A stretch of DNA of 64,000 nt from a virus. Its lineage: Duplodnaviria > Caudoviricetes. Location of the stretch: positions 77 to 64,076 of the IMG/VR virus record IMGVR_UViG_3300037088_000771; one strand, written 5' to 3'. The translations under genes were made by a program, and so were the position numbers. The notes beneath the pieces were generated by a model that made no database searches, was not told the origin of the DNA, and was given only the letters and a program-made list of their open reading frames with translations. Below, piece after piece: positions 2,429-54,627 of the stretch. Each line of letters opens with the position of its first letter. Position 1 is the first letter of the stretch.

Positions 2429-2860
2429 GTGCATCCTAATAGGATGCTTACCAGAGAGGAAAAGAGACGTAGAAGGCACAGTGATGAATTTAATAAAATC
2501 TTCACATTCTTCTTAAAATCTTATCGACACAAAATACTTGATTTTTCAGGTATTGAAGTAAAAACAATAATGAACATTAATGAAGACGATGGTAAAGTCT
2601 GTTTCAAAAAATTCGACAATGGTGAATATAAAGGTATTGATTCAATATCAACCAGACATCCAAACATATTAAAAGGTGTAATTGTCGGAAAAAAATCATG
2701 GGGTTTACATGTAAAAATGTGGTCTGAAGGTATCTCTGAAGGTACATTTACCAAACGAGAAATTTTACAACAATTTATAGATAATAAAATTGAAATTCCA
2801 GAGCCGTTTTTAATTGATTTTGATAACACAATATTTAAAAAATTTCGAATGAAGCAATAG
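2429..2860 (+). CDS. hypothetical protein
   Basis: 143-aa ORF with phage-typical composition; start uncertain. Confidence 0.6.
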   Translation: MHPNRMLTREEKRRRRHSDEFNKIFTFFLKSYRHKILDFSGIEVKTIMNINEDDGKVCFKKFDNGEYKGIDSISTRHPNILKGVIVGKKSWGLHVKMWSEGISEGTFTKREILQQFIDNKIEIPEPFLIDFDNTIFKKFRMKQ

Positions 2861-33976: not shown

Positions 33977-34357
33977 ATGGAAACAAATCCGAAATTATTC
34001 GCAATAGCCGATACCCTGTCGAAACTGACAGTATTAGAAGCAAAAGAATTGGTTAATATTCTTGAAAACGACTATGGCATCAAACCCGCTAATGTATCTG
34101 TACCTGTTGGAATAGTGCCAACAGTTGAAGTTGTTATCCCAGAACAGACTGAATTCGATGTTTATTTGAAAGAAGTTGGTGGACAGAAACTGCAGATAAT
34201 CAAAAAAACTAAAGAATTAAGAAATTTAACTCTCATTGAAGCAAAAACATTAGTTGAGAGTGCTCCATGTAAAATATTGGAAAAAGCATCAAAAGAAAAT
34301 GCAACATTGTTTAAAACCGAATTAGAAATTTTTGGTGCAGTAATTGAAATAAGATAA
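33977..34357 (+). CDS. rplL: ribosomal protein bL12 (L7/L12)
   Basis: LTVLEAKELV..LE..YGI N-domain; EQTEFDV.L...G..KL..IK...L.EAK.LVESAP C-domain. Confidence 0.9.
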   Translation: METNPKLFAIADTLSKLTVLEAKELVNILENDYGIKPANVSVPVGIVPTVEVVIPEQTEFDVYLKEVGGQKLQIIKKTKELRNLTLIEAKTLVESAPCKILEKASKENATLFKTELEIFGAVIEIR

Positions 34358-36714: not shown

Positions 36715-36788
36715 GCTTCCGGGGCTGGGTGGCAAAAGGCATTGGTCTCTAAAACCAATTTGTGCAGGTTCGATTCCTGTCGGAAGTA
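36715..36788 (+). tRNA. amber suppressor tRNA (CTA)
   Basis: ttggt-ctCTAaa-accaa; acceptor gcttccg/cggaagt; T arm gcagg-ttcgatt-cctgt. Confidence 0.85.
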
Positions 36789-36894
36789 CAAAAATAAATG
36801 AAGAATAATTTGGAAATTAAAAAACTTTGACTAATTTTGTATCTCAATAGTATTTATAAGTCTACAGAGTAATATTAATTAACAAAGAAAAACG

Positions 36895-51345: not shown

Positions 51346-51666
51346 GGTATAAACCCTAATTTTTTCTAATTTTTCTTAATAGTTGCCTGAGAATCAATAA
51401 TTCTTCGGTCTGGGGTCTTCAACACACCATTTTCTATAAAGATCAACTTTTCTCTTCATATCTCTTGCTTTTTTCTGCAGTTCATCCAAAGATGTTGCAA
51501 GCAAAACTTCGTTTATTGGGACACCACTTGGCGAACTATCATCAAGATATCTACCAAGGAAAGCATTGCCACTGTCGGCAAGTTTGTGCATTTCAGGAGA
51601 GTTAGGATATAACTCTTTAACTTCTCTGATTAATTCTGGTGAATACATATTTATAAATTTAATGGG

Positions 51667-52440
51667 TTACAATTGATCAAATTCTGGTATCCAACGTTTT
51701 GGAAGCCTTCTGAACTTAAAGGTTTTAGTTTCAAGTTCTTCTTCAGTTAACACAGAATCACTATATGGTCTGACTTGGGTTTTCTTACCCTTCTTTCTTT
51801 CCTTGATTGATACATCAAAAACACCGACATCATCTTTCCAAAAATACCAAATATCTCGATTCTGACCATAATGCCATAGACTAAGATTGTAAAAATAATG
51901 AGTGTAATTCTTTTTCAGATATTCTTGGACTTCACGCACATATCCTTTGAGAACAAAGTTGCCTTTGTATTTAGAGTACACAAAACATAAACAATATGCG
52001 CCACCAGCCATACCAGATTTTCCATCGGCAGGTATTTCAATGACAGGATATTTTTTATTTAAAAGTGAACGTTGTCTTTTTTCGTAGATTTTCACGGCTT
52101 GATCTCTGTAAAATGCATAATTATCAACATCAGTGATACTTTTCTTTTCTTCAAGTGTAAGTTCTCTCTTAAATCTCAAGCCAGTGTTACTTAGAAATAC
52201 CTGCCAAGCAATTTTTTCAATTTCCTGCATTTTATTAAATTTATCAATGTTTTCTTTTGGAAAAAGAGAAGTACCAGCAAATTTTGAAAATAAGTCTTCT
52301 GGTTCTTTTGGCTTTGGCAGACTTGAACTTGGTCTGTCATTACAAACCTTATGCTCACCGCATAATTCACATTGACCTATGGATTTACAGAGACTTTCAG
52401 GGTATCCGTTTTTCTTTGCACAATCATTACAATAAAACAT
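51667..52440 (-). CDS. hypothetical protein with N-terminal Cys-rich domain
   Basis: 257-aa ORF, CNDC...CELC..CND. Confidence 0.65.
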   Translation of the reverse strand: MFYCNDCAKKNGYPESLCKSIGQCELCGEHKVCNDRPSSSLPKPKEPEDLFSKFAGTSLFPKENIDKFNKMQEIEKIAWQVFLSNTGLRFKRELTLEEKKSITDVDNYAFYRDQAVKIYEKRQRSLLNKKYPVIEIPADGKSGMAGGAYCLCFVYSKYKGNFVLKGYVREVQEYLKKNYTHYFYNLSLWHYGQNRDIWYFWKDDVGVFDVSIKERKKGKKTQVRPYSDSVLTEEELETKTFKFRRLPKRWIPEFDQL

Positions 52441-52617
52441 ATCTTATTAATTTAAGTTTCAAAAAAAGTTTAGGAAGGCACAGAAATATATCGATCAGTT
52501 ATGCGTTTATATTTAGACCAAATTCCTGTGCCTTCGGGTCAGTTATGCGTTATATATAAGACCACCCATCTGCTTGAAGGGCAAAGTTACCCTTGGAGCA
52601 GAACCTAAACAATGTTG

Positions 52618-52774
52618 TGGGGACGGAGGGTGTCGAACCCCCAGAGTCTGCTGTTCTTCATGATAACCAATTTCGAACTTGTCTACCACTATCACCAACC
52701 TACCAACGACTTAGTATACTCCATCGTTTCACCTGACTAACGTCAGGCAGCTTTACCAATTTGCTTACGTCCCC
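52618..52774 (-). ncRNA. tRNA-like RNA with large internal insertion
   Basis: Acceptor ggggacg/cgtcccc+A, D arm agc-aaattggtaaa-gct, T arm ggggg-ttcgaca-ccctc; ~157 nt. Confidence 0.7.
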
Positions 52775-52788
52775 GTAAATTTTAAAAT

Positions 52789-53195
52789 AATGAAACGGTG
52801 TGTTGTTACACCAAATGCTCTTAGGACTGCCATAAGCGTTGAAAAAGAGAGCTTAACTAATACACTCTCAAGCTGATTTCCCTCTCGTACTTTCACGCCA
52901 AGGCTATCTCGTAACCTCTAATCTTAATTCCAACATCCTCTCGTATTTGGAACTTACTTATTGCATAACTACTAACCTGCAATATCTCCCCAGCCACGTT
53001 GGATGTCTCGGTATTTCGACCTAAACCGCTACTGTATGAAGAATTTTCAGCTTTCGTTTTCCGATGGCTCTACGTGCGAACCCTATAGTTAGATACCGCC
53101 CACGCTTGTCAACGCTGTATCAGCATAATACAGTTTAACTTCCATTGGCAACTCTTTGAATGATGGCTACTTCCAAGCCTACATTCCGCCTCATT
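52789..53195 (-). ncRNA. large ncRNA with 23S rRNA-like modules
   Basis: Terminal stem aatgaggcgg/ccgtttcatt; split uL11-binding-domain sequence; AGUACGAGAGG sarcin-ricin-like loop; no credible ORF. Confidence 0.8.
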
Positions 53196-53219
53196 AACTT
53201 TTTCAAAGAACTTTATTTG

Positions 53220-53345
53220 TGGTTCAAGAAGGAATCGAACCTCCTGATACATGCGTTTCAGATATCACTCCACACACAACCCGATCTCCAACCATCCATC
53301 AAACTAATTATGCATTTTCATTTGACTTCTGGTGATCGTTGAACC
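53220..53345 (-). ncRNA. RNA with tRNA-like acceptor/T-arm domain
   Basis: ggttcaa/ttgaacc+A; T arm ggagg-ttcgatt-ccttc; non-cloverleaf interior. Confidence 0.65.
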
Positions 53346-54402
53346 GTTATGAAACCTTATACGAATAATCATTATAAAAGGTTACACTTTTTTTAAAAAA
53401 ACTTGAAAATGTCTTTTACACTTTCCTGCATATACCTGAGTTTCTTCTACTTTCACATTATAATCGTTACTTACATTAAAAAACATTGTGCCAATATTTT
53501 CAGGTAACCCATCTGGATAAGGTGTTGTAATACTAAACCAGAGATTCTTACCAAGTCCACTGTCTTCAACAGTAAAACTATCATTTTTCATCAACTCTAA
53601 CGCCAGATTAAGATGCTTATACAAATCAATCTCTTCTTTTTCGTGTTTAAGAGAAGTGTTAATATTTAACATTCTGTCATCAAATACATCCAACATAGTT
53701 ATCTACTCTTTTAATTCTGTTCCTGTATGAGTTATTATGAAGTTTACTTTAATGTATTCAATTGGTTTTACTGGTTGAAAATAAATATTAAGAATACTAT
53801 TCTTAACATCGAGTTTTTCCTTTATTTCACCAATTAATTCACCTTTATAGTAACATTTATTTTCTTCATCAATGCTATACTTAGCAGCATGCTTTAAATC
53901 GTTACAGATCGCAGCTAATATTAAATTATTTATAATCATAAGTTAATTTTTTTATACAGCAAATGTAAGTATTCTTTATTTAAAATCATAATATTTTATA
54001 ATTTTTCATGTCCAGAAAAGTATTTATATCTGTAACAGAGGTAAATAACTTTTGCCTATGACAGATATTAAACTCAAAGATATTAAAGATTCTTTCTTTC
54101 TCTTCTTCGCTCAAATGTTATCGTTTGCCATCATTACTATAAACTATCGTGCCGTAGCACAAGCAAGTTATGTTTGGTCAGTATTGACCGATTTTGTTGT
54201 TGCTGGTCTGTCATATTTTGTAGTGAAAAAAATTGCTAAATCAAAAGACAGTAAAGCACAATGGATAGGTTTTACAATTGGCAGTGGATTGGGTACAGCA
54301 ATCGGTATTTGGATTTCTAAAATTATTCTTGGTCAATAAGCAGCATTTATATATTCGTGTCGTCTTTAAGTAAAAATAATCTTTTATTTAAAAACAACAA
54401 TC

Positions 54403-54627
54403 ATGGCAACTTTAAAAAAAACAAAGAAAAGAGTATTCGCTGGAGTTTGTGGCGGTATAGCCAAATTCATAGACCCAGATATCAACCCACTTGGAATAAG
54501 ACTATTATGGTTTTTCGTTGCATTATTTCACCCCTTCACTATGTTATTGATTTACCTATTCTTAGCAGCAACACTCAGAACAGAATTGTCAATCTTCACT
54601 GATGATAAAACTAAAGCAGAGGTTTAA
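54403..54627 (+). CDS. PspC-domain membrane protein
   Basis: FAGVCGGIA..I......IRL.W.........IY. Confidence 0.85.
   Translation: MATLKKTKKRVFAGVCGGIAKFIDPDINPLGIRLLWFFVALFHPFTMLLIYLFLAATLRTELSIFTDDKTKAEV

Follow-up and report, generated by a model that had tools for sequence, protein, structure and literature searches.

The GTPase-associated center (GAC) of 23S ribosomal RNA (rRNA) binds ribosomal protein L11 (uL11) on its own in vitro as a fragment of 58 nucleotides (nt), and rRNA's sarcin-ricin loop (SRL) is universally conserved. Crystal structures of the GAC with L11 are cited in passages of one paper (PMC6239185), and an excerpt of another presents the GAC and the SRL as the pair of rRNA elements that make up the site where factors bind (PMC8661411). 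We analyzed a stretch of phage DNA, called the window here, that covers 64,000 nt (positions 77 to 64,076) of the IMG/VR virus record IMGVR_UViG_3300037088_000771 (Duplodnaviria; Caudoviricetes). The window encodes a stable noncoding RNA (ncRNA) of about 407 nt on its minus strand, at 52789..53195. This ncRNA belongs to a family that is found mainly in big phages, usually beside transfer RNA (tRNA) genes, and whose members, called mimics below, carry a split copy of the GAC.

The ncRNA shares with the bacterial GAC its helices and their register, a near-identical helix 43 (H43) and junction, the type of hexaloop at the end of helix 44 (H44) and the covariation of 1072 with 1092-1099, and one covariance model matches both. 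Unlike the GAC of rRNA, the mimic is free-standing with its own closing helix, lies in phage DNA next to tRNA-like genes, contains a 338-nt insert between 1090 and 1091, has G at 1067 and has tips that vary within the family. The SRL (helix 95, E. coli 2653-2667) is matched by a UAC-GAGA-GGA hairpin closed by C-G, and by an exact 13-mer in sister clades. Here too there are differences: this hairpin (hairpin a) lacks the bulged G in the window, a pentaloop is the best reading of a second one (hairpin b), and the loop of hairpin a varies (10/30).

RNAs that copy a protein-binding site of rRNA are familiar from the leaders of ribosomal protein (r-protein) operons, where mimicry of rRNA for feedback is an established principle (such as the L10 leader RF00557 and the L1, S15 and L20 leaders). 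Those leaders are short cis-acting 5' untranslated regions (UTRs), whereas the mimic is a stand-alone RNA of 407 nt that is not the 5' UTR of a regulated gene and has no r-protein gene downstream. To our knowledge, no r-protein leader copies H43/H44. GOLLD and ROOL, both of them Rfam families, are likewise large, located in phages or prophages, neighbors of tRNA genes and of unassigned function, but at E<=10 none of the Rfam models matches the ncRNA, and we know of no report of rRNA mimicry for either. Phage tRNA arrays serve as replacements for cleaved host tRNAs. Pseudo-ToxI of phage PhiTE (PMC3475682) is reportedly directed against a suicide system of the host, as a phage RNA that imitates a host RNA to neutralize a host protein. 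Both the tRNA arrays and pseudo-ToxI differ from the mimic in the RNA that is imitated and in the target. The full-text literature, with supplementary lists of candidate RNAs outside the search, gave no account of mimicry of the GAC or the SRL by a phage RNA. We found no described RNA family that replicates the factor-docking site.

The ncRNA lies inside a 940-nt gap free of open reading frames (ORFs; 52441-53381), with minus-strand genes of no assigned function on both sides. Anchor-based extraction and covariance model R1, introduced below, give identical ends for the whole element, from closing helix to closing helix (52789..53195, minus strand, 407 nt). These are the coordinates and strand given in a preliminary description of the window, and every string quoted there was found in its place (the closing stem at 53186-53195/52789-52798, the GAC-like ends, and 52928-52952, 52901-52917 and 53078-53100). 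No ORF crosses the ncRNA in any of four genetic codes (tables 11 and 4, TAG=Q and TAA=Q), which rules out a protein-coding region in another genetic code; recoding of TAG opens no frame across it. A search of Rfam 15, proposed in the preliminary description, gave no family for the window at the gathering score; at E<=10, with the region 51500-54500 searched, the ncRNA had no match either. The weak matches in this region were tRNA-like only and were restricted to the two flanks of the ncRNA. Copies from three cultured phages had no Rfam match at E<=1. GOLLD, ROOL, RNase P, transfer-messenger RNA (tmRNA) and fragments of large-subunit (LSU) rRNA were rejected as identities on the lack of an Rfam match, and a 23S gene or fragment was rejected on the lack of an LSU match (gathering score or E<=10) and the presence of the element's own closing helix. 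The minimum-free-energy fold of the ncRNA has -113 kcal/mol (z = -2.7 against shuffles). A scan for sigma-70 promoters was uninformative, with 4 sites found and 4.0 expected.

When the ncRNA was compared with seven real 23S rRNAs by BLAST, the rRNA-like pieces were the 5' half of the GAC, the H44 loop and the SRL only. The closing helix, P1, pairs a 5' strand in the register of the tip of helix 42 (H42; 53186..53195, minus strand, 23S 1046-1055) with a 3' strand in the register of 23S 1104-1113 (52789..52798, minus strand), and all 10 positions are paired in the window. It leads into an H43-like hairpin that carries G1067 and U1072 (53159..53185, minus strand, 23S 1056-1082) and the junction strand (53151..53158, minus strand, 23S 1083-1090). 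The top of H44, with the loop GUAACA and a U1092-A1099 pair, is formed near the 3' end (52799..52812, minus strand, 23S 1090-1103). The 5' strand of H44 (1087-1091) is not continuous, as the 338-nt insert (52813..53150, minus strand) enters between 1090 and 1091. The preliminary description had read these ends as a 23S H43/H44 copy split by an insertion, and the alignments agree: the window is identical to E. coli 23S 1057-1088 at 28 of 32 positions (E 2e-4), its 5' half to real metagenomic 23S rRNAs with U1072 at 33 of 37 (E 8e-9), and its 3' end to the H44 loop of such U1072 rRNAs at 16 of 18. A stretch of the insert, CUGAAAUG, was likened by eye to the 23S region after H44 and was dropped as below significance.

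Relatives were collected with a 21-letter word from the H43 copy (10 viral contigs), with degenerate words for the two ends (in viral contigs, 37 stretches for the 5' word and 91 for the 3' word) and with a scan of metagenome contigs (81 stretches). Some of the metagenome matches are genuine U1072 23S rRNAs, which are recognizable because H44 continues from H43 unbroken. Anchoring on both rRNA-like halves left 126 instances, which represent 89 distinct elements with a distance from G1062 to C1104 of 119-460 nt. These elements have a common plan that consists of a closing helix, the H43 copy, the junction strand, a variable insert, the H44 top and the second strand of the closing helix. In all 89 relatives, P1 keeps 7-10 of its 10 positions paired despite unrelated sequences, and compensatory change was seen at 8 of 9 pairs (alignment A1). 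H43 keeps an upper stem of 3 or more base pairs, a 9-nt loop and a lower stem (1057-1061/1077-1081). Within it, 1058:1080 occurs as U-A, G-C, A-U and C-G across the 89 elements, and 1064:1074 flips from C-G to G-C in 4 of them. The junction strand is near-invariant, with A1085, G1087 and A1088 in 89/89 relatives. At the top of H44, G1091, G1093, U1094, A1098 and C1100 are kept in 88-89 of 89, and the 1092-1099 pair, which closes a hexaloop of the G-U-A-A-N-A type, is C-G, U-A or U-G in all 89. The near-invariance of the H43 stem and junction is partly an effect of ascertainment, since the search patterns fixed most letters or allowed at most 7 changes in 28.

The copy also keeps the sequence signature of the tertiary contacts of rRNA. 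Positions 1072 and 1092 covary in 87 of the 89 mimics (U/U 68, C/C 19), and the combinations at 1072/1092/1099 are U/U/A in 47, U/U/G in 21, C/C/G in 19 and U/C/G in 2. This coupling is not an artifact of the collection because the words that retrieved each half left the other half unconstrained. Real 23S rRNAs with U1072 carry the same partner change, U1092-A/G1099. Work of the Draper laboratory is reported to define 1072 with 1092-1099 as a base triple of the GAC, and U1060 with A1088 as a further contact. By these definitions, the mimics have the nucleotides of both contacts; U1060 and A1088 are each found in 89/89, a count that the search patterns partly favored. The most variable positions of the mimics are 1061, 1067 and 1069, which passages of PMC6239185 describe as unconserved and as free of hydrogen bonds in the GAC tertiary fold. 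The same passages call A1070 and A1095 invariant in rRNA (PMC6239185), and these are A in 87/89 and 85/89 of the mimics.

Covariance model R1 was built from 30 short relatives with the window excluded, and its structure held the rRNA-like pairs only. It has a single match in the window, which runs end to end over the ncRNA (52789-53195, minus strand, 79.9 bits, E 4e-16). R1 also matches real GACs, with 57.3 bits for E. coli 23S and 62.7 bits for a metagenomic 23S. The model from relatives that the preliminary description had proposed to build thus recovers both the ncRNA and its rRNA counterpart.

Two observations belong beside the triple. At metagenome loci L135, L142, L143, L165, L183, L184, L191, L196 and L206, genuine 23S rRNAs with U1072 have U1092-A1099 and C or U at 1097, and they share this variant of the triple with the window mimic. 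Tandem mimics of different type, 10 nt apart, were seen in contigs of about 880 kb (L149, 5681-5896 and 5907-6391; also L162 and L200). One of the pair is 191 nt with C1072, and its 460-nt partner combines U1072 with C1092-G1099; the 460-nt type accounts for both exceptions to the triple rule.

The insert was studied in the long class of mimics, which measure about 360-400 nt from G1062 to C1104. The 30 distinct members that were aligned comprise the window clade (the window, L146, L185 and L056), a 24-member gut clade (phage contigs of 100-190 kb, several from records titled human gut metagenome) and the singletons L052 and L210. The RNAalifold consensus for the 30 RNAs has 84 pairs, 53 of them with compensatory change. 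With the rRNA-like H44 pairing added, pairing holds in 97.1% of 2414 cells, and changes on both sides are seen at 53 of 82 pairs. None of 500 shuffles reached any of the five measures used, and slid partners gave at most 15 such pairs.

Both SRL-type hairpins named in the preliminary description are conserved across the clades of the long class. Hairpin a (52926..52954, minus strand, described earlier as 52928-52952) has a 7-bp stem and the loop AAUAC-GAGA-GGAUG, and it matches 23S 2656-2665 at 10/10. Its stem is paired in 100% of cells and its C-G closing pair is kept in 30/30. The gut clade has the exact SRL 13-mer here (13/13), and in L052 the match to the SRL extends to 22/24 including the stem (E 0.002). 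The window keeps UAC-GAGA-GGA, with A in place of the bulged G of the SRL (AAUA for AGUA). The loop itself is not invariant: it is GAGA in 20 of the 30, AAGC in 4, GGGA in 3, AAGA in 2 and AAAA in 1 (with the closing pair, CGAGAG, CAAGCG, CGGGAG, CAAGAG and CAAAAG), and 7 of the 10 that are not GAGA do not have the GNRA form. Hairpin b (AGUA-C-GAGAG-G-GAA, 4-bp stem, 52871..52899, minus strand) contains AGUACGAGAGGG at 52880-52891 and matches 23S 2654-2664 at 11/11. Its form across the class is AGUA-N-GAGA(R)-N'-GAA, with the AGUA and GAA of the bulged-G motif, and comparison favors a 5-nt loop. Hairpin b is an SRL-type module and not an exact copy of the SRL, because its closing pair varies (C-G in the window clade, G-C in 24/24 gut-clade RNAs) and its loop usually has 5 nt.

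The other rRNA likenesses in the preliminary description gained no support from comparison with relatives. A third "ACGAGA" hairpin at 52901-52917 had been listed with the SRL-like ones; it is a plain, variable hairpin (52901..52918, minus strand) whose stem covaries at 4 of 7 pairs and whose loop is CGAGA in the window, CUUGU in L146 and GAA in L185. A segment said to resemble helix 69 (H69), at 53078-53100, has no BLAST match to 23S 1906-1924 at E<=10, and the gut clade has other letters in place of its 8-mer. A boxA-like string, AGUUCUUUGAAA, does lie upstream of the ncRNA in the window and is missing upstream of the gut-clade relatives. The H69 look-alike, the third hairpin and probably also the boxA string are chance or clade-specific, and the rRNA-like motifs that relatives conserve are the GAC halves and the two SRL-type hairpins.

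In the gut clade, the columns for 1067-1069 and the SRL loop vary about as much as other loops. An arms race acting on hypervariable tips was ruled out as an explanation, as the exposed columns are no more variable than the other loops of that clade. Because the exposed GAC and SRL loops behave like the rest, our own reading is that selection acts on the fold and not on the exact tips. A separate element, in a metagenome-assembled genome (MAG) labeled Thioploca (L235, region 2547-2710, minus strand), is a 163-nt C-type mimic whose insert has an SRL-like AUUACGAGAGGAAA and which is followed by a tRNA-Thr gene. This string is expected about 0.17 times by chance and is not significant; GAC and SRL may have been paired independently at this locus.

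The ncRNA is present in RNA libraries. Contigs that are 100% identical to the window cover 52791-53100, 52791-53091, 53006-53151 and 53007-53170 (four libraries from three studies). These contigs cover the ncRNA only, with the flanks 52400-52790 and 53192-53450 uncovered, and two of them end at 52791, 2 nt short of the predicted 3' end. The 5' 25 nt are covered only by cross-mapping contigs from real rRNA. Very deep short contigs over 53151-53184 are of this kind as well, as judged by their mismatches and rRNA-like loose ends. The contigs carry no strand, abundance or exact ends, contamination of RNA libraries by DNA is possible, and lack of cover is no proof of ends. We rate the library contigs as good, though not final, evidence of a discrete RNA.

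What might such an RNA do? Of five readings, we rank first a decoy or sponge for uL11 that acts in trans, off the ribosome, and we give it about an even chance. Its secure part is structural: the ends and the 10-bp closing helix fold into a self-contained GAC (H42 tip, H43 and H44; E. coli 1051-1108), and the 338-nt folded insert, entering through the 5' strand of H44, displays the two SRL-type hairpins. We infer that the ncRNA binds host uL11 through the GAC tertiary fold, because the copy matches a domain known to bind L11 autonomously. The RNA-uL11 complex might then imitate the factor-docking site and compete with ribosomes for whatever recognizes that site. Less uL11 for ribosomes would reduce signaling that depends on it, such as the activation of RelA, and the RNA could also absorb proteins aimed at the GAC or the SRL. 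A function for the whole family would have to rest on the GAC copy, because 59 of the 89 members are without the SRL hairpins.

Several points weigh against a uL11 sponge. The insert splits H44 between 1090 and 1091, and in the model the surface for uL11 is only assumed to be free. The tips by which rRNA contacts factors and thiopeptides are not kept: 1067 is G in 50 mimics, A in 37, C in 1 and U in 1, with G in the window, and A1095 is changed in 4/89. The GAC of rRNA also binds thiostrepton, and G1067 in the window would presumably weaken that binding. Among the 30 long-class RNAs, 10 have an SRL tetraloop other than GAGA, the window's hairpin a is without the bulged G, and in the gut clade the loops of SRL and GAC drift about like any others. 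With such variable tips (G1067, an SRL loop that drifts), the ncRNA is unlikely to be an exact functional mimic as far as factors, thiopeptides or loop-specific toxins are concerned. Part of the constancy of H43 and the junction comes from the search patterns. A sponge must be abundant, and the RNA contigs give no abundance. Lastly, relatives of the window with the same gene order were found through the neighboring 257-aa protein (69% and 53% identity), and the 5' motif is absent from the records of all 5, including a complete genome of 349 kb; the ncRNA is therefore dispensable for that phage lineage.

The same loops bear on a second reading, already proposed in the preliminary description, in which the ncRNA is a substrate decoy. 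Naked copies of the SRL and H44 targets would absorb ribosome-inactivating toxins of host defense or of competitors (nucleases or glycosidases acting on the SRL, ADP-ribosyltransferases acting on H44), which would leave the ribosomes at work for the phage, and uL11 binding would be incidental. This decoy and the scaffold for uL11 and GTPases that was proposed with it are both plausible. Toxins against these exact sites exist: according to an excerpt of PMC8661411, Tre23 ADP-ribosylates 23S H44 within 1095-1098, and the same excerpt cites VapC-mt20 and VapC-mt26 as cleavers of 23S rRNA and ricin as a depurinator of the SRL. The H44 loop letters G1093, U1094 and A1098 are present in 89/89 mimics and A1095 in 85/89. 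The ncRNA sits among tRNA and tRNA-like genes, where the two aberrant tRNA-like flanks in the window could be decoys too, and it occurs patchily, like a cassette and close to homing nucleases, as accessory counter-defense genes typically do. Yet a decoy should copy the target loop, and a third of the long class (10/30) has left GAGA while 1067, 1096 and 1097 vary among mimics. SRL toxins cannot explain the whole family because 59/89 elements fall outside the class of about 360-400 nt that bears SRL hairpins. The analysis identified no anti-phage defense that targets rRNA, and none is encoded beside the ncRNA. A decoy would also need to compete with tens of thousands of ribosomes. We consider this second reading unlikely.

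The union of GAC and SRL in one molecule, seen in several divergent clades of the long class, could instead point to a trap for translation factors. As a miniature GTPase center with host uL11, perhaps with uL10 and bL12, the ncRNA would bind EF-G, the EF-Tu ternary complex, IF2, RF3 or RelA, and by sequestering or activating these GTPases or RelA it would reprogram translation or the stringent response. EF-G is said to have bound oligonucleotides of both sites, the GAC and the SRL, in work of Munishkin and Wool (1997). The preliminary description had linked the ncRNA to a bL12 gene. The gene is indeed present in the window (about 34154-34351, plus strand, Ribosomal_L12 domain at 72 bits), in its tRNA-rich half. 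It lies about 18.5 kb from the ncRNA on the opposite strand, there is no uL11 gene in the window, and neither bL12 nor uL11 was found in the near-complete genomes that carry a mimic (0/5), so that the link itself is unsupported. Also counting against a factor trap, the factor-contacting nucleotides are variable (1067; 2659, 2660 and 2662 of the SRL loop) and most members are without an SRL hairpin. P1 spans the tip of H42 only, so the kink-turn region, which we take to be the binding place of uL10, is absent. This third-ranked reading is improbable. Equally doubtful is a more specific form, in which the ncRNA and host uL11, perhaps with phage bL12 on host uL10, would make up a free-standing GTPase-activating center, the insert joining GAC and SRL, with futile hydrolysis of GTP or trapping of GTPases or RelA as the outcome. 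If it were true, phages would have a direct RNA-based handle on the translation factors and the stringent response of the host.

The surroundings of the mimics were examined for cis-acting roles and for partners. A tRNA gene on the same strand lies within 300 nt of 58 of the 89 elements (31/89 have none), and in 33/89 a tRNA starts at most 100 nt downstream. In the window, the 3' hairpin and U-rich tail of the ncRNA score as terminator-like. These features would suit a cis-acting element of a tRNA transcription unit, either a uL11-sensing leader or a processing or folding module, which would control or punctuate the expression of neighboring tRNA or tRNA-like genes. Against this, some copies have their own strong terminator and no tRNA behind it (L023, L032 and XacN1), the RNA contigs end at the ncRNA's own end, and what follows the ncRNA in the window is a tRNA-like RNA and the 257-aa protein, with no r-protein gene. 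We rank this reading fourth and give it little chance.

The two flanking elements in the window are both aberrant. Upstream there is a tRNA-like element with acceptor and T arm only (53220..53294, minus strand), which is a weak match to the tRNA-Sec model (18 bits). In the near-identical locus L146, the equivalent lies 19 nt upstream of the copy and is called by ARAGORN as a tRNA with an anticodon of 4 letters; in the window the distance is about 25 nt. Downstream, at 52615..52774 (minus strand), the acceptor and T-arm ends of a second tRNA-like RNA match tmRNA and tRNA models, and an insertion of about 120 nt replaces its anticodon and variable region. This RNA is a possible processing site for the 3' end of the ncRNA, and it is kept in the syntenic relatives L013 and L016, both of which are without the mimic. 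The 257-aa protein belongs to no Pfam or PHROG family.

Among 1088 ORFs within 4 kb of 114 copies, clustering gave HNH endonucleases (8 lineages) and TnpB (3) as the neighbors that recur across lineages, and no conserved protein partner beyond these mobile-element nucleases. The lack of a conserved neighboring protein points to partners from the host, and the ncRNA therefore behaves as an accessory cassette that acts alone or with host proteins. TnpB/IS605 OrfB-type genes adjoin mimics in L189 (2707-3864, minus strand), L187 and L293. The recurrence of HNH and then TnpB as the only multi-lineage neighbors, together with presence or absence that differs between close relatives, would also be expected of a selfish or neutral cassette derived from rRNA and spread by homing endonucleases or TnpB. 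A generic scaffold that reuses common modules (bulged-G and GNRA) is a related possibility, as the SRL core is put together from RNA modules that are common and has a drifting loop. Both are at odds with the strong purifying selection on the fold (53/82 pairs with compensatory change and a coupled tertiary triple) and with the presence of the RNA in RNA libraries. Moreover, the GAC copy persists in phages that differ widely in host and habitat, which is hard to explain without a function. We place this reading last of the five, as very unlikely.

Mimics also occur, unannotated and intergenic, in cultured phages: covariance-model matches were obtained in Cronobacter phage GAP32, Xanthomonas phage XacN1 and Aeromonas phage 4_4572. 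In Xanthomonas phage XaC1, a relative of XacN1, a match to the 5' half only was seen. A search of GenBank phages with the whole 1-kb gap as query gave no match. With a short relative as query, GenBank returned 30 records, mostly rRNA-bearing contaminants or bacterial, of which five are real phage genomes. A match in Paenibacillus phage Pd_22F (L131; MZ092003.1, about 83.4-85.2 kb) was rejected as a mimic because it is a contiguous, unannotated, real 23S of Firmicute type; it may be host DNA or an assembly artifact. A scan of prokaryote genomes, with 80 loci examined, gave 25 full mimics and 53 loci with the 3' word only, the latter being about the number estimated by chance for a degenerate 18-mer. 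The 25 copies are mostly in MAGs, with three in named strains, namely Flintibacter muris DSM 110149 and two whose names are provisional.

Since unannotated copies sit in cultured phages (GAP32, XacN1 and 4_4572), the question of function is directly testable. If the mimicry of the fold is what it looks like, many large phages are equipped with a portable copy, made of RNA, of the site where factors dock on the ribosome. This would be a new class of phage-host interaction, in which an RNA imitates rRNA rather than tRNA or promoter DNA, and studies of uL11, thiopeptides, translational GTPases and ribotoxins would gain a natural, self-folding construct of GAC and SRL. For annotation, there is a risk that such elements are mistaken for rRNA contamination in viral contigs.

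The window makes up nearly all of its viral contig, which is estimated to be about 20% complete, and the DNA runs that contain the stretch are labeled as peat and freshwater metagenomes. Its plus strand has 45 tRNA genes and a tmRNA gene. One tRNA at 36715-36789 (plus strand) has a CUA anticodon, that of an amber suppressor (ARAGORN label Pyl). Recoding of TAG fuses the two minus-strand ORFs directly upstream of the ncRNA (53382-53696 and 53703-53939) into one frame of 185 aa.

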